From assembly GCA_005772955.1 (NCBI GenBank), contig SXID01000149.1, positions 22,594 through 86,593 on the forward strand: a stretch of DNA of 64,000 nucleotides. Direction: 5' to 3'. Source of the stretch: Planctomycetia bacterium. Its GTDB lineage: Bacteria > Planctomycetota > Planctomycetia > Gemmatales > Gemmataceae. Positions 5,283 through 12,167 of the stretch are shown in pieces. The notes beneath the pieces were generated by a model. It did not search any database, was not told where the DNA came from, and saw only the letters and a program-made list of their open reading frames with translations. Positions within the stretch are counted from its first letter, which is position 1. Each line of letters starts with the position of its first letter. The position numbers were made by a program, and so were the translations under genes.

Positions 5283-7532
5283 GTGAGTACAACCCCAACC
5301 ACCGCGCCCACCCCACAATCTTCCGGTGGTGGCGACGCCGCCCGGACCAAGTACGCACGCCAGATCGAAGACGCCTTCGAGTCAGCCGGGAAACTGGCCG
5401 GCTCTGCGCTGGCACCCACCGACTTCTACCAGCAGTTCCTGAACCGCACGCTTTCGGCCATCGACGCGCCCGCAGGCGCCGTGTGGCTCCGCACGCCGCA
5501 AGGCTTCCTGCAACTCGCGTGTCAGGAGAACATCGACAAGGTTGGACTGGACGCGCGCCGCGGCGCGCGTCAGTGCCACAACGAGGTGCTGCGACAGGTG
5601 TTCCAGGCCGCGCCGCCGCGCCCGGTGCTGTTGGAGCCGAACGGGCGCATGGCCCCCGGTCCCGGCGAACCTGGGCCTGTTCCGCCCGCCAACCTCACCG
5701 ACCACTTCACGCTCTTCGCCCCGATTGTTACGCCCGACAAGCAGGCGCTCGGCATCCTCGAAATCTTCCAGGATGCCACACACGACCCGCGCCTGTACCC
5801 CACCTTCTTGAACTACACGTTCCAGATGGCCGGGTACGCGAGCCAGTACCACAGTTTCAGCAACGCCCGCATCGCGGCCGGCGTCGAGAAGACGTACGCG
5901 CAAGTCGAATCATTCGCTCGACAGATCCACAGCAGTTTGAACCCCACCGAGGTGGCGTACCACGTCGCCAATGAGGGACGTAAACTGATCGAGTGCGACC
6001 GATTGTGCGTCGGGATTCGCCACGACCGCTACCGCGTCACCGTCGAATCGGTCAGCGGGGCCGATGTGGTCGAGAAGGCCAGCACACACGTCCGCTCGCT
6101 GCGCCGGCTCATGGAAGCCGTGTTGCAGTGGGGCGAACCGCTCACGTTCAAGGGCGAGAAGGATCCCGGGTTGCCCGCGGCTGTCGCTCACGCGCTCGAC
6201 GACTACCTGCACGAGAGCCAGCCGAAGTTGCTCATCGTGCAGCCGACGCGCGACGAGCGCGAGAAAGACATGACCAAGCCGGCCCGCGCCATACTGGTCA
6301 TGGAGTGCTTCAACCCACCAGAACAAACCGAACCGCTGCTCCAACGGCTCGACGTGGTGACCAAGCACGCGGCACCGGCGCTGTACAACGCGGCCGAACT
6401 CAAGCGTGTCCCGCTCAAGTTCCTGTGGTGGCCGATCGCCAGGGTTCAGGAGGGTCTCGGCGGCAAGCGGCGGTTCATCGCCGCGTCGATCGCGCTACTG
6501 GTCGCGGTGCTTGTGGGCGTGATGGCTGCGCCGCCGTCGATCCCCCCGTTCGGCGCCCAGTTGAGAATGGAGGCGAAGGGCCAGATGCTGCCCGTCGAAA
6601 TCGCCAAGATCTTCCCGCCACGCGAAGGTGTGGTGAAGGAGGTCCGCGCCAAGCCGGGCCAGCAGGTCGATCCCAACTTTGAACTCGTCGCCTTGTACAG
6701 TGAGTCGCTAGCCGACGAGTACAACCGGGCGCGGAGCGAGTGGAACGAACAGAGCAGTTTCGTGTCTGAATACACGAAACAGCTCCAAACCAACCTGAGC
6801 AAGGAAGACCGGAACCGCGTCTCGGCCGACAAGACCGTTGCTGAGGGCCGAAGCAAGAAGGCACAGGGCGACATGGAGGCGCTCGACCAACAGTACAACA
6901 AGGTGAACAACAAGCCGAACAGCAAGGGCCAGGCAAACAATTCCGGCCCCGGCCACTTCCGCGCCATTGCGCCGGACTTCGACACCAGACTTGCACGCGA
7001 ACTCGGCCGCTCGCGATGGACCGTGCTCAACGACGACCGACGCGAGAGCCTGCTCGGGCGAACCATGCGACCCAACGAGGAGATGCTTCGCATCGGCAAC
7101 CTCGAAGGCGCGTGGCACATCGAACTGAAGATCCCGCAGCGCAATGTCGGGCAGGTGCTCAGAGCCTTCGCGGACCCGAAGAAGCACCTGATCAACAAAG
7201 ACCCGGTGAAGGGCGACCGCAAGTTCCTCGACGTGGATGTGCTATTGTCGAGTCAGACGGACACGAGTTATACGGGCCGTCTGTACCGCGATGACATCGC
7301 CGCCGAAGCGGTGCCCAACAAGAACGAGCACGACGAGAACGAACCGGTCGTGACCGCCTACGTGAAGTTGAACGTGAAGGGGATCGACGAAAGCCGGTGG
7401 GTGCCGCGGAACCACTTCATCACCGGACTTGAGGTTCGCACCCGGATCCGCTGCGGCGAACACGCACTCGGCTACACGCTCTTCCACGGCGTCTGGGAGT
7501 GGTTCTACGAGAAGGTCGTGTTCTTCTTCTAA
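5283..7532 (+). CDS. GAF-domain protein fused to an HlyD/membrane-fusion-like adaptor module
   Basis: N-terminal GAF-like regions (AGAVWLRTPQG; ECDRLCVG), one TM helix, biotinyl-lipoyl-like 'GVVKEV..KPGQQV', coiled coil, beta-barrel 'WHIELKIPQRNVGQV'. Confidence 0.75.
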   Translation: MSTTPTTAPTPQSSGGGDAARTKYARQIEDAFESAGKLAGSALAPTDFYQQFLNRTLSAIDAPAGAVWLRTPQGFLQLACQENIDKVGLDARRGARQCHNEVLRQVFQAAPPRPVLLEPNGRMAPGPGEPGPVPPANLTDHFTLFAPIVTPDKQALGILEIFQDATHDPRLYPTFLNYTFQMAGYASQYHSFSNARIAAGVEKTYAQVESFARQIHSSLNPTEVAYHVANEGRKLIECDRLCVGIRHDRYRVTVESVSGADVVEKASTHVRSLRRLMEAVLQWGEPLTFKGEKDPGLPAAVAHALDDYLHESQPKLLIVQPTRDEREKDMTKPARAILVMECFNPPEQTEPLLQRLDVVTKHAAPALYNAAELKRVPLKFLWWPIARVQEGLGGKRRFIAASIALLVAVLVGVMAAPPSIPPFGAQLRMEAKGQMLPVEIAKIFPPREGVVKEVRAKPGQQVDPNFELVALYSESLADEYNRARSEWNEQSSFVSEYTKQLQTNLSKEDRNRVSADKTVAEGRSKKAQGDMEALDQQYNKVNNKPNSKGQANNSGPGHFRAIAPDFDTRLARELGRSRWTVLNDDRRESLLGRTMRPNEEMLRIGNLEGAWHIELKIPQRNVGQVLRAFADPKKHLINKDPVKGDRKFLDVDVLLSSQTDTSYTGRLYRDDIAAEAVPNKNEHDENEPVVTAYVKLNVKGIDESRWVPRNHFITGLEVRTRIRCGEHALGYTLFHGVWEWFYEKVVFFF

Positions 7533-7719: not shown

Positions 7720-9786
7720 ATGCGCTCGCGTGTACTCGCGTTCTGGTGCCTTCCGACCGTACTCGCCGCCCTGCTCATCGGCTGCGGACCCAAACCCAAC
7801 CCGACAGGCGACAAGCCCGGCACCCCCGAACTCGCCGTCCCGGTCAAGACTGGTAGCCCGCTGTACGCGGCGGCTGCGCCGCTGACGTACGAGGCGCAGG
7901 CCGCGAGCGGCGAACCGTTGGTGATCCCGAACTGCGTCGTACAGTATGAGGAACGGCAAATCGTTTCGGCCGAGGTGGACGGCACCATCGAATTATTCGC
8001 CACCGGGTTCAAGCCCGGCGAGTACGAGAAACTGACTGACGCGCAGAAACGCGAGTGGGTCATCTACCACCCGCGTGACCCAAACCCGAAGAATCCGACC
8101 CCCCTGAAGCGAATCCGCGAGAGTATGCCCGTCGATGCGCGGCAGGTGGTCGCGTTCATGGACGACCAACTCGTCCAGGCGCGCCTCGACGGAGCGCAGA
8201 AGATCAAGGACTCGGCGATCAAGGCCAAGGAGAACGCCACTACGGGGGCGAATGCTGCCAAGAAGAAATACGAGATCACCTTGAAGGTGTACGGCGACCA
8301 ACTCACCAAGGAGGTACTCGACGACCTCATCACGCTCAGCCGGTTCCTTGAGAACCTCGACCAGGCGACCCAGCAGATCGCGAAGTCCGAGGCGGACTAC
8401 AAGGAAGCACAAGTGTTGATCGGCCGGCACCAGGTCAAGAGCGGCGTGGACGGCACCATTCGCACCATCTCCAAACGCCCCGGCGAGTATGTGAAGGCCG
8501 GCGAGAAGATCATGGAAATCGAGGGCACCGACAAGGTGCGGATCGAGGGCCAGATCGACGTTCAGTACTTCGCGCAAGTGCGCGAACACATGCAGAACAA
8601 CAAGGACGTGATTATCGAGCCGGCGCTGCCGAGTGCGCCGGAAGCATCGCACACGGGACACCGTCAAGCGGTCACCGGCGTCGCGGTCACCGCGCACCCG
8701 GACGGCCCGCTTGTCGTTTCCGCTGGTGCCGACGGCGGCGCGCTGGTGTGGGATCCGAACCTGGGTAAGAAACCGAACCGCCCGGCGGTTCCGCACAATC
8801 TGCCGCACCCGGTCGGCGTGAAGTGCGTTGCCGCGACGCCCGCGACCTCGAAAGCCTCACTCATCATCACAGGGGCCGACGACGGCAAAGTCCGCATTTG
8901 GGACGTGTCGAACCGCGACAAACTCCCAACGACACCGAGAGCGGAACCGGACGACGCGCACGCGTCCGCGGTTCAGGCAGTCGCGATTAGCCCGGATGGA
9001 CGGCACTTCGCCACCGCCGCTGGGCGCGACGTGTTCGTGTGGGAAGTCGCGACCGCGAAGAAACTCTATTCGCTTGCGCTGGAACACCGCGACTCGGTCA
9101 CGTCCGTGAGTTTCACCCCCCAAAACACGCTCATCACCGCGTCGAAGGACGGCACCGTCAAGGTGTGGAAACTCGGCACCGAACAGGCTGCCGTGGTTCG
9201 CACGCTCGACCACCGGGCCGGGGCCATCGACGTGCTCGGCGTCAGCCGCGACGGCGCGCGTATGCTCTTCGACCAGGACAAGGCCCGCGTGGACTTGGTT
9301 GATCCGGCGACCGGGCAGACTGTGGGGCAGATCCAGAACGGCGGCTCGGCCGGTTCGTTCTCCACATTTGCCGTGTTTGGCCCCGACGAGGTGGCGCCTG
9401 GTACTGATGCGGCGAAGGTGCCTTACACCATCGCAACGGCTGGCGGCGACGGCGACCTCAAAGGCGCTCTCCAAGTGTGGCAATCGCCCCGCACCGGCGG
9501 GCGCGGAGCGGAAGTGGGACGGCTCATCACCCCCAACCGCACGCCGGTAACGGCTATTGCGTTCAGCCCGGTTCGTGGCGAGCAGTTCCTCGTGGTCGGC
9601 ACCAGCGCCGGCTCCGTTCACCTGTGGAAGCCCCCGACCCAGGCGCCCAAGGCGTACAAGGGACGGATCGTGAACATCGACGCGGCCGACACCAAGTACG
9701 TCACGGTTCGCGTCGAGATGGACAACCGGGAACTCCGGCTCCTTGACCACAGCATCGCCAACGTCATCATCGCTTCGGAGAAGTAG
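7720..9786 (+). CDS. Lipoprotein HlyD-family periplasmic adaptor with an internal WD40 propeller
   Basis: Lipobox LLIGC; 'VSAEVDGTI' and 'VKSGVDGTI...PGEYVKAGE' lipoyl halves around a coiled coil; about seven WD40 repeats ending WD/WE/WK. Confidence 0.8.
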   Translation: MRSRVLAFWCLPTVLAALLIGCGPKPNPTGDKPGTPELAVPVKTGSPLYAAAAPLTYEAQAASGEPLVIPNCVVQYEERQIVSAEVDGTIELFATGFKPGEYEKLTDAQKREWVIYHPRDPNPKNPTPLKRIRESMPVDARQVVAFMDDQLVQARLDGAQKIKDSAIKAKENATTGANAAKKKYEITLKVYGDQLTKEVLDDLITLSRFLENLDQATQQIAKSEADYKEAQVLIGRHQVKSGVDGTIRTISKRPGEYVKAGEKIMEIEGTDKVRIEGQIDVQYFAQVREHMQNNKDVIIEPALPSAPEASHTGHRQAVTGVAVTAHPDGPLVVSAGADGGALVWDPNLGKKPNRPAVPHNLPHPVGVKCVAATPATSKASLIITGADDGKVRIWDVSNRDKLPTTPRAEPDDAHASAVQAVAISPDGRHFATAAGRDVFVWEVATAKKLYSLALEHRDSVTSVSFTPQNTLITASKDGTVKVWKLGTEQAAVVRTLDHRAGAIDVLGVSRDGARMLFDQDKARVDLVDPATGQTVGQIQNGGSAGSFSTFAVFGPDEVAPGTDAAKVPYTIATAGGDGDLKGALQVWQSPRTGGRGAEVGRLITPNRTPVTAIAFSPVRGEQFLVVGTSAGSVHLWKPPTQAPKAYKGRIVNIDAADTKYVTVRVEMDNRELRLLDHSIANVIIASEK

Positions 9787-9897
9787 CGAGCAATGTGTGG
9801 CGAGTGACGAGCAAAACCTGATCGCGGGCTTTGCTCGTCACTCGTCCTCCTCGCTCGATTTCTCCGACTCGCAACTTGTCACTCGCTACTCGTGACT
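9783..9897. repeat. Heptamer-periodic inverted repeat
   Basis: AGTAGCG...AGTGACG AGCAAAA / TTTGCT CGTCACT ... CGCAACT TGTCACT CGCTACT. Confidence 0.7.
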
Positions 9898-9905
9898 GTT
9901 TTCAC

Positions 9906-12167
9906 ATGGCCAACGACCTGATCACGAACCTGAACAGCCCCGCGGAGCGCCGCAAGCAGGTGCGGCTGCGCGTGCGCCCCGACCTTCAGGCGTTCGAGCA
10001 GAAGTACGAGGGGAAGACGTTCACCGTCATCAAGGATCCGGTGTGCCTCCGGTACTACCGGTTCAGCAAGCAAGAATACTTCGTGTTCCAGTTGTTCGAC
10101 GGCAAACACACGATGGAAGAGGTGCAGAAGCAGTTCGAGGAAGAATTCAAGCCGATGCGGTTAGAGCAAGCAGACCTGGAGGGTTTCGCGCGTCAACTGG
10201 TGACCGCGGGTCTGGTGCAGAACGAACAACCCGGTGCGGCGCAGCACCTGTTTCAACGGCGTGCCAAGCAGCGCCGGATGCGCCGGCTCGCGACCTTCTC
10301 CAACATCCTGTACCTCAAGATTCCGGTCTTCGACCCGGACCGACTGCTCACGTGGATGTTTCGCTACCTGTCGTGGATCTTCACGCTGTGGTTCTTCGCG
10401 CTCAGCGTCGGGTTGATGATCGCGGCAGTAGTTCACGTCACGCTGCACTTCAACACGTTCCAGGCGAAGTTGCCGGCGTACCAGGAGTTCTTTACGTGGA
10501 ACTCCGTGCTCTACATGTGGCTCTCACTCGGCGTGGTGAAGGTCATCCACGAGTTCGGGCACGGGTTGAGTTGTAAAGCGTTCGGCGGCGAGTGTCACGA
10601 AATGGGCATCTTGCTCATGTGCCTCTCGCCGGCGCTCTACGCGAACGTGACCGACGCGTGGACACTGGCCGACAAGTGGAAGCGGATCATCATCAGCTTC
10701 GCGGGCATCTACGTCGAGTTGGTGATCGCGTCCATCGCCACGTTCGTGTGGTGGTACACGCCCGCGTACCCCACCGCGAACAACATCGCGCTGTGTATCA
10801 TGGTGCTGTGTTCGGTGTCCACCGTGATGTTCAACGCGAACCCGTTGATGCGCTTCGATGGTTACTACATCCTCGCCGACTGGTTGGAAGTGCCGAACCT
10901 GCGCGAGAAGGCTACCAAGTTCCTGAACAACCTGTTCCTGTCGAAGTGCCTGGGCGTCGAGGTGCCGCCGGACGCGTACATGGCCCCGGGGCGCAAGTGG
11001 CTGTTCGTGATCTACGCGATCGCGAGTTGGGTGTACCGGTGGGTGGTGACGTTCAGCATTCTGTGGTTCCTTGCCGACTTCATGGGTCCGAAACTCAAAA
11101 TCCTGAGCCAGATGTTAGCGATCATGTCGCTGGCGTCGCTGTTCATCTGGCCGGGATACAAGGTGATCAAAAACATTCGTCAGCGCGGGCGGTTACCAGA
11201 CATGAAAGCGGCGCGGGTGCAGATCACCCTCGGTGTGTTCGGGTTGTTGCTCCTGGGGTTCTTTTTCCTGCCGTTGCCGGTGAGTCGGGTCCACGAGACG
11301 GGTCTGGTCGCGGTCGATCCCGACCACTTTGAAGGCGTGCTGCTGGCGGAACCGGCGCGTCTGGTCGCGATCGAAGACGTGGGACCGGGACAGAATGTGC
11401 GCCGCGGGCAAACGCTGGCGACCTTCAAGAGCGAGACACTGGAGGTCGAACTGGCGAAGGCGCAGTCGATCAAGAACGAGCAGTGGCTAACGGCGGGGTT
11501 GCTGAACGCTTCCGCGATCAAGGCACGCGGTGCGGGAGACACGGCGGCCGAACAGCGGTTCGCGGCGGAGTACAAGAAGGCCCGCGCGAAGGCCGAAACT
11601 GCCGCTGACGAAGTAACACGGTTGCTCGCCCGCCAGAACCGCTTGCGCGAGTTGAAAGCCCCACGCGACGGAGTTCTCCTCACCACGCCAAAGCGCGACG
11701 ATGTCGGCAAACTCTTCGACAAGGGTTACGCCGAAACGGCCCCGGTGTTCACGGTGGGCGACCTGGGCCGGCTGATTCTGAAGGTGCCGGTCAGCCCACC
11801 GGACTTCCGCGTGCTGAAGGACGACCTCGCGGTGTACGGCGAACTGGACGTGTCGGTGTGCGCGAAAGGCCGGAGCGACCGTACGTTCAGCGGGAAACTC
11901 CGCAGGTTGCCGGCACAGAACGCGGCCACGGTGCCGCTGGCGCTGACGCAACGCGGCGGAGGATCGCTCGCGGTCAAGCCGGGCGACGACCCGAACGTGC
12001 TCATCCCGCTGGCGCAGGTGTATCTGGTGGAAATCGCGATGACCGACCCGGACCTGACCATCGATCCCGGTCAACTCGCGATCGTGAAGATCCACGCCCG
12101 CTGGCGTAGTAGCGCCTGGTGGGTCGGCCGCGCGCTCTCCAACTCGCTCGACATCGGGCTGTATTGA
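9906..12167 (+). CDS. Site-2 (M50) metalloprotease fused to an N-terminal PqqD-like domain and a C-terminal HlyD-like adaptor
   Basis: HEFGH zinc motif, NANPLMRFDG (NxxPxxxxDG), multiple TM helices, 'LKAPRDG' lipoyl half and beta-barrel. ATG at 9906. Confidence 0.85.
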   Translation: MANDLITNLNSPAERRKQVRLRVRPDLQAFEQKYEGKTFTVIKDPVCLRYYRFSKQEYFVFQLFDGKHTMEEVQKQFEEEFKPMRLEQADLEGFARQLVTAGLVQNEQPGAAQHLFQRRAKQRRMRRLATFSNILYLKIPVFDPDRLLTWMFRYLSWIFTLWFFALSVGLMIAAVVHVTLHFNTFQAKLPAYQEFFTWNSVLYMWLSLGVVKVIHEFGHGLSCKAFGGECHEMGILLMCLSPALYANVTDAWTLADKWKRIIISFAGIYVELVIASIATFVWWYTPAYPTANNIALCIMVLCSVSTVMFNANPLMRFDGYYILADWLEVPNLREKATKFLNNLFLSKCLGVEVPPDAYMAPGRKWLFVIYAIASWVYRWVVTFSILWFLADFMGPKLKILSQMLAIMSLASLFIWPGYKVIKNIRQRGRLPDMKAARVQITLGVFGLLLLGFFFLPLPVSRVHETGLVAVDPDHFEGVLLAEPARLVAIEDVGPGQNVRRGQTLATFKSETLEVELAKAQSIKNEQWLTAGLLNASAIKARGAGDTAAEQRFAAEYKKARAKAETAADEVTRLLARQNRLRELKAPRDGVLLTTPKRDDVGKLFDKGYAETAPVFTVGDLGRLILKVPVSPPDFRVLKDDLAVYGELDVSVCAKGRSDRTFSGKLRRLPAQNAATVPLALTQRGGGSLAVKPGDDPNVLIPLAQVYLVEIAMTDPDLTIDPGQLAIVKIHARWRSSAWWVGRALSNSLDIGLY

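Follow-up and report, generated by a model that had tools for sequence, protein, structure and literature searches.

Whether a complete WD40 beta-propeller can sit inside the beta-barrel of a periplasmic adaptor protein, as opposed to being joined to one of its ends, is the question raised by a gene in a 64,000-nucleotide stretch of DNA (hereafter, the window) from a Planctomycetia bacterium of the family Gemmataceae, order Gemmatales (assembly GCA_005772955.1, contig SXID01000149.1, positions 22,594 to 86,593). A single open reading frame on the forward strand, at positions 7720..9786 of the window, encodes 688 amino acids and holds the whole feature. A preliminary description of the window had placed WD40 repeats at 8640-9650, which corresponds to residues 307-644 and is the WD40 part of the protein, and had read them as a domain inserted at a barrel loop and not as a terminal fusion. 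That reading is strongly supported by four independent lines of evidence (domain profiles, a solved MacA structure, orthologs lacking the insert and the predicted structure of one such ortholog), and we are highly confident that the propeller is nested in the barrel, in a nested-insertion architecture.

Domain profiles and orthologs lacking the insert

The 688-residue product is a lipoprotein membrane-fusion or periplasmic adaptor protein with a lipobox, a lipoyl domain, an alpha-helical hairpin and a beta-barrel, as indicated by the list of open reading frames, by Pfam and NCBIfam matches and by full-length homologs from Gemmata, Frigoriglobus and Thermogemmata that are 47-76% identical to it. 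It has the fold and ancestry of the HlyD/RND_mfp superfamily, whose adaptors connect the two membranes in machines for efflux and secretion. In the native sequence, Pfam HlyD_3 matches residues 239-320, Pfam HlyD_D23 residues 208-292 and NCBIfam RND_mfp residues 138-293. Since HlyD_3 covers only positions 2-78 of the 106 in its profile, the match to the native protein is cut short. The barrel start quoted in the preliminary description (KVRIEGQIDVQY...VIIEP) was located at residues 272-301 and the quoted resumption of the barrel (YKGRIVNID...VTVRVEMDN) at residues 646-669, one on either side of the WD40 part.

Removal of residues 309-640 in silico, ahead of the profile searches, extended all three matches and raised their scores. 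HlyD_3 extended from profile positions 2-78 to 2-96 of 106, HlyD_D23 from 84-164 to 83-209 of 214, and RND_mfp from 48-189 to 48-244 of 322. In addition, a profile of 15 insert-deleted members matched the solved MacA structure 4dk0 over the lipoyl domain, through the junction and into the next strand.

These results bear on a different explanation, in which the WD40 region is a C-terminal fusion followed by an unrelated stretch of 45 residues, or in which errors of assembly or annotation have merged an adaptor gene and a WD40 gene into a chimera. Two observations could be taken in its favor, namely that Pfam searches of the native sequence show only the N-terminal adaptor part and then WD40 repeats, and that databases call the protein sometimes 'HlyD family adaptor' and sometimes 'WD40 repeat protein'. 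However, the family profiles cover the tail once the insert is deleted, in alignments it falls on the final three strands of the barrel in MacA and in the insert-less orthologs, and the gene is one uninterrupted open reading frame in more than 130 genomes, closed chromosomes among them. A fusion or chimera was rejected on these grounds as extremely improbable.

Orthologs lacking the insert were sought in genomes with two queries, the insert-deleted profile and the downstream protein, which carries an M50-type protease domain and an adaptor-like part (M50-adaptor). Such orthologs, 304-333 residues in length and encoded directly upstream of the M50-adaptor gene, were found in other planctomycete families, the insert-less relatives coming from Planctomycetaceae, Schlesneria, Planctomyces, Pirellulales and Blastopirellula marina DSM 3645. 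Comparison with planctomycete homologs of this kind had been proposed as a check, and both flanks of the insert were found to align with them end to end. By hhalign, the insert-deleted and insert-less profiles were aligned with 99.8% probability (E = 1.8e-27) over 251 columns, which begin at the first barrel strand and extend as far as the C-terminus. A MAFFT alignment of insert-deleted sequences was clean at the junction, where ...VIIEPALPSA followed by PKAYKGRIVNID... stands opposite ...VEVEVDIPGIRLPIEDRKYHGKITFID..., and in the insert-less orthologs the two strands flanking the insertion point are connected by a short link, which in Planctomycetaceae is a loop of 8-15 residues. A global MAFFT alignment of the full-length and insert-less proteins spread the short C-terminal piece over the WD40 columns, and was replaced by the insert-deleted alignment and hhalign.

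A word-index search with the insert-deleted sequence returned no close insert-less homolog. One 460-residue protein (P0121), encoded on a 10-Mb Gemmata contig, was considered as an insert-less homolog and rejected as a frameshifted copy of the adaptor. Its reading frame is lost after about residue 240, through either a pseudogene mutation or a sequencing error.

Predicted structure of the adaptor and its propeller

The structure of the 688-residue adaptor was predicted by AlphaFold2 (AF2) with a 58-sequence alignment, giving a predicted local distance difference test score (pLDDT) of 86.2 and a predicted template-modelling score of 0.67. The elements follow in the order expected of an adaptor up to the insertion point: a strand at residues 67-76, lipoyl strands, helices at 150-191 and 197-236, further lipoyl strands, a strand at 272-280, a helix at 281-292 and a strand at 296-305. 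About 28 strands then fall within residues 309-636 as seven groups of four, after which the strands 646-654, 660-668 and 679-684 lead to the end of the chain. The tail that follows the propeller was predicted with a pLDDT of 77-89.

The inserted domain (residues 307-643, about 337 residues; positions 8638..9648, forward strand) is, in the predicted structure, a closed seven-bladed WD40 propeller, an assignment to which PF00400 matches, Foldseek comparisons and the alignment of homologs all contribute. The strand at 309-311 completes blade 7, which is the usual 'velcro' closure of such domains. PF00400 matched the adaptor with E = 1.7e-29 and a score of 101.4 bits, where the family threshold is 27; four stretches passed individually, and many further propeller families in Pfam matched at about residues 310-551. 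Foldseek comparison of the full model with the PDB returned the seven-bladed WD40 propellers RACK1, WDR5 and PkwA, with target-normalised template-modelling (TM) scores of 0.80-0.86 over about 345 columns. The propeller layout is far beyond what chance would produce, and the expectation of about seven WD40 repeats was borne out by the seven four-stranded blades and by these TM scores.

Because the Foldseek search with the full model brought up propellers only, and not the adaptor part, the insert-less ortholog of B. marina was modelled by AF2 (pLDDT 84.7). At the insertion point, a turn of two residues connects its strands 231-238 and 241-252. The ortholog model matched solved EmrA, MacA, AcrA and MexA with E-values between 1e-20 and 1e-14. 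Structure prediction, the other check proposed for the nested reading, thus yielded the same barrel elements on either side of the propeller as in the insert-less B. marina ortholog.

The portion of the adaptor barrel that precedes the insert (positions 8533..8637, forward strand) comprises beta1 (residues 272-280), the capping helix (281-292) and beta2 (296-305), and ends in ...VIIEPALPSA. It was delimited by AF2 and by alignment to the insert-less orthologs. The portion that follows the insert (9649..9783, forward strand) comprises beta3 (646-654), beta4 (660-668) and beta5 (679-684), as delimited by AF2, by the profiles after in-silico deletion and by hhalign. The propeller therefore sits in the turn of the beta2-beta3 hairpin. 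Adaptor barrels are described, in a review of the adaptor family, as six antiparallel strands with one helix as a cap (PMC8277102). As far as sequence homology and secondary structure go, this protein has both the six-strand barrel and the capping helix. On the same grounds, the two flanks may be expected to close one barrel around the insert, the point on which the preliminary description had made its reading depend. The strand pattern of the model offers a reason why the host barrel would tolerate so large a domain, since a velcro-closed propeller has both of its chain ends adjacent in one blade.

Membrane anchoring and the remaining domains

The features outside the barrel and propeller, all on the forward strand, agree with an exported adaptor. 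The only hydrophobic segment of the protein is a putative signal peptide at the N-terminus (7720..7785) that ends in the lipobox L-I-G-C, and across the 58 homologs Cys22 is invariant and Gly21 is conserved in at least 90%. Given these sequence features, the adaptor is assigned as a protein that is exported and lipid-anchored. As the signal peptide is the sole hydrophobic segment, the mature protein, including the propeller, should be periplasmic.

The first barrel strand (residues 67-76) and the N-terminal lipoyl half occupy 7918..8160 and were delimited from AF2 strands. The alpha-helical hairpin (residues 150-236; 8167..8427) was assigned from the AF2 helices 150-191 and 197-236 and the RND_mfp match, and the C-terminal lipoyl half (residues 238-270; 8431..8529) from HlyD_3 and Biotin_lipoyl matches and AF2 strands. 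The lipoyl domain is accordingly in two halves split by a helical hairpin, as indicated by RND_mfp, HlyD_D23, HlyD_3 and the AF2 helices. In the AF2 model the protein ends after barrel strand beta5, and no membrane-proximal domain is present; the model of the B. marina ortholog is likewise without one. The fold and ancestry are those of adaptors that lack the membrane-proximal domain, such as EmrA.

A second, lineage-specific insertion of about 40 residues lies in the N-terminal lipoyl half (residues 95-135; 8002-8124). In the hhalign comparison, residues ~93-129 of the adaptor face a gap in the insert-less orthologs, from which this second insertion is missing as well, and AF2 predicts a short helix plus strands at residues 95-135.

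Distribution and conservation of the insertion

The combination of adaptor and propeller is widespread in Gemmatales. Of the 151 Gemmatales genomes that were sampled, 133 contain a match, most of these matches lying in open reading frames of ~670-800 residues, and the match to the N-terminal part always stops at the junction. All 58 aligned homologs carry the insert, with a length of 317-345 residues. Four distant members, one of them from a second family, show the same break from HlyD_3 to WD40 and the same three-gene order. In one locus of the second Gemmatales family (L041, 3742-6030, genome G302), HlyD_3 ends sooner (profile positions 2-60) and the protein has 762 residues, so the insert or its surroundings may differ there.

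The full set of 1.84 billion representative sequences was searched with the N-terminal adaptor part alone. Among the matches listed, which comprise 150 clusters, the N-terminal part is directly followed by a WD40 part in 94, and all 67 full-length clusters have a tail of ~54 residues that carries, in the tail alignment, the adaptor barrel-end motif ...rqvrvwAEl.Np.g.rLlPG.tvt.vi. A short hidden Markov model of the 45-residue tail recognised 14 of the 94 divergent members. Hundreds of such proteins are present in databases under the names "HlyD family efflux transporter periplasmic adaptor subunit" or "WD40 repeat protein".

The insert is conserved as much as the barrel and more than the hairpin, the mean consensus frequency being 0.72 in the insert, as against 0.64-0.74 in the barrel and 0.53 in the hairpin. 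Within the propeller, the loops of the top face (B-C 0.83, D-A 0.70) are more conserved than those of the bottom face (0.63 and 0.62). The closest paralog of the insert in its own genome has 36% identity. The wide distribution and the lack of a close paralog indicate that the insertion is old and fixed, and is neither a recent shuffle nor an assembly artefact. The propeller was gained in an ancestor of the order Gemmatales.

Operon partners and the SecA-linked module

The adaptor gene lies between two partners on the same strand, an order shared by the Gemmatales loci that were compared. The upstream partner (5283..7532, forward strand; 749 residues) combines a cytoplasmic GAF-like part, one transmembrane segment (6474-6536) and an HlyD-like periplasmic part (GAF-adaptor), and was assigned from weak HlyD matches and BLAST, which aligned it over its full length with the GAF-HlyD protein of B. 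marina (E = 7e-59). It ends in a strongly aromatic tail, WEWFYEKVVFFF (7494-7529); distant Gemmatales retain this tail, and the B. marina ortholog ends in a similar way. The downstream partner (9831..12167, forward strand) has a PqqD-like N-terminus, an M50-type intramembrane metalloprotease domain and an HlyD-like C-terminal part, as assigned by Pfam, NCBIfam and motif searches. Pfam Peptidase_M50 matches this protein, as does NCBIfam daptide_HExxH (6e-53, below the cut-off of that model), and its motifs HEFGH (10548-10562) and NPLMRFDG (10839-10862) are intact. The protein resembles the maturation proteases of ribosomally synthesised and post-translationally modified peptides (RiPPs), and its PqqD-like N-terminus is of a peptide-recognition type. 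A scan for promoters and terminators at the locus gave nothing beyond chance.

The genes GAF-HlyD, Peptidase_M50-HlyD, HlyD/Biotin_lipoyl and SecA_DEAD have been reported as a conserved module linked to a secondary SecA, for which a type-I-secretion-like function was proposed and in which WD40 is not mentioned (Kamneva, Poudel & Ward 2015, PMC4452313). Secondary SecA_DEAD genes unlinked to the module operon also occur (PMC4452313). The genes studied here belong to this SecA_DEAD-associated module, since GAF-HlyD and Peptidase_M50-HlyD are co-encoded with the adaptor and a truncated secondary SecA_DEAD is present in the same genome. The latter, a 666-residue protein with SecA_DEAD, preprotein cross-linking (PPXD) and P-loop features, is encoded on a different contig (C213; locus L005, 8636-10636) and is unlinked to the operon. 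Its neighbors are a SpoU methylase and an FHA-GAF-sigma54 activator. The three adaptor-type genes occur in the same order in B. marina DSM 3645 (locus L059) as in the Gemmatales loci, and in B. marina and one other genome (G190) a SecA_DEAD gene heads the operon. The assembly of the genome studied here comprises 5.9 Mb in 278 contigs and was rated 100% complete, and several genomes of the same genus have 8-10 Mb.

The neighborhood is not that of a canonical tripartite pump, in which the adaptor would accompany an ATP-binding cassette (ABC), resistance-nodulation-division (RND) or major facilitator superfamily (MFS) transporter and a TolC-type factor; the neighbors here are the GAF-adaptor and the M50-adaptor. 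TolC-type (OEP) genes are present elsewhere in the genome on other contigs, and none is on the contig of the adaptor.

Position and possible role of the propeller

The preliminary description had envisaged the propellers as a ring on the membrane-proximal face of the assembly, possibly as substrate receptors. In the AF2 model, the strands would run beta0 up, beta1 down, then the helix, beta2 up, beta3 down, beta4 up and beta5 down to the C-terminus. Such an order would put the beta2-beta3 turn at the end of the barrel that faces the lipoyl domain, and the chain termini and the membrane anchor at the other. With the insertion turn so placed, the propeller may tentatively be placed lateral to the ring more readily than at the membrane face.

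Along the chain, a lipid anchor and a flexible linker lead to the first barrel strand, after which the two lipoyl halves, with the alpha-hairpin between them, precede the rest of the beta-barrel. The adaptor is the middle component of a conserved trio made up of a GAF-adaptor with a transmembrane segment, the adaptor itself and a PqqD-M50 protease-adaptor, with SecA encoded elsewhere. This module may form an envelope-spanning conduit, similar to type I secretion, that works without an ABC, RND or MFS pump. By analogy with other adaptors, the protein would oligomerise via its lipoyl and barrel domains, and the propellers outside the ring would then serve as docking platforms for proteins or peptides. 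The docked partner could be a periplasmic component, an outer-membrane component or cargo, and binding would probably involve the more conserved 'top' face, which bears repeated His-Arg motifs, with R315, R457 and R499 among the conserved positions. We put forward this docking role tentatively, as a possibility somewhat short of even likelihood. Several points weigh against it. A conduit function of the module is itself a hypothesis taken from the literature, and neither a gene for an ABC, RND or MFS pump nor one for an outer-membrane factor was found at the locus. No candidate cargo gene is conserved beside the operon. Additionally, the top face owes some of its conservation to the structural Asp-His-Ser/Thr-Trp network found in WD40 repeats, and a binding site need not be the cause of it.

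Two other roles for the propeller were weighed against this docking role. In the first, the propeller is a structural brace that packs on its neighbors, either copies of the same protein or the adaptor parts of the upstream and downstream gene products, and so stabilises a hetero-oligomeric ring or sets its stoichiometry. Such a ring would lack the membrane-proximal domains and the periplasmic pump domains that normally organise adaptor rings, the former being absent from this adaptor and from its insert-less orthologs alike. Three different adaptor-type proteins are always co-encoded, conservation spans the whole propeller and is not confined to one face, and barrel domains are assigned to hexamer formation and transporter contact in the adaptor-family review (PMC8277102). 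The insert-less orthologs of other orders, however, evidently assemble without a propeller, and no matching new domain was seen in the upstream or downstream proteins of Gemmatales. We regard a bracing function as rather unlikely, if plausible.

In the second, the propeller acts strictly as a receptor for cargo or peptides, capturing either a product of the M50 protease or an unfolded periplasmic substrate and feeding it into the adaptor tunnel. The top faces of WD40 domains commonly bind peptides, and the loops of this face are the more conserved ones in the present family. The downstream gene also fits a peptide-handling system, given the PqqD-like peptide-recognition N-terminus of its product, the intact M50 motifs and the likeness to RiPP maturation proteases. 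Against this, the locus has no conserved cargo gene, modules without the insert presumably handle cargo without a propeller, and the insertion point would lie on the side away from the membrane, probably turned to the outside and not to the lumen. A strict receptor appears slightly less probable still than a brace.

A broader proposal, which goes beyond the docking role of the propeller and which we consider speculative and improbable at present, is that the three adaptor-type proteins join in one hetero-oligomeric machine that crosses the envelope without a pump. The truncated SecA-like ATPase would drive it, together with a peptide protease of the RiPP recognition element (RRE)-M50 type, and in Gemmatales an external WD40 ring would recognise cargo or a partner in the outer membrane or cell wall. 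If true, the machine would represent a new class of apparatus, for secretion or for peptide processing, into which a periplasmic receptor ring is built.

Relation to known systems and meaning of the finding

The Gemmatales adaptor shares its lipoyl domain, alpha-hairpin, six-strand barrel with capping helix and periplasmic anchoring with EmrA, MacA, AcrA, MexA and HlyD, and the matches of the insert-less ortholog model include E = 1.6e-20 to EmrA (8zal) and 2.4e-17 to MacA (3fpp). Compared with EmrA-type adaptors, it adds the 337-residue propeller in the beta2-beta3 turn and the insertion of ~40 residues in the lipoyl domain, and it is partnered by a GAF-adaptor and an M50-type membrane protease-adaptor in place of an ABC, RND or MFS pump. 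It differs from the middle adaptor of the SecA_DEAD module as described by Kamneva et al. (PMC4452313) in having a WD40 insert and a lipobox.

The propellers of PkwA and of the Nostoc WD40 protein are terminal domains or stand alone, and they are cytoplasmic. The Gemmatales propeller matches them in sequence and fold, with Foldseek TM scores of 0.84-0.86 between the model and PkwA of Thermomonospora curvata (5yzv) and a phmmer E-value of 2.4e-42 between the adaptor and the Nostoc protein (2ymu), but it is predicted to be exported and is nested inside another domain. BamB and TolB are periplasmic beta-propellers that act as protein-protein platforms on envelope machines, and BamB is also a lipoprotein. 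They may be viewed as functional analogs of the Gemmatales propeller, although no WD40 homology to it was detected by any test run, and they are separate polypeptides that are not nested in an adaptor.

No description of a nested propeller came to light in searches of the literature for WD40 domains combined with HlyD or with periplasmic adaptors in planctomycetes, and the available portion of the adaptor-family review does not mention WD40 or propellers (PMC8277102). Such a propeller would come as a surprise to specialists in efflux and secretion machinery. It is also a clean natural case of WD40 loop insertion that is useful to protein engineering. For the planctomycetes themselves, the propeller provides an experimental handle on the widespread module of GAF-adaptor, M50-adaptor and secondary SecA, with the insert-less orthologs as natural controls for swaps. 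Accounts of periplasmic adaptors present them as four modules in a fixed series, and an interaction domain nested in the barrel shows that this scaffold tolerates, and keeps, large accessory modules.

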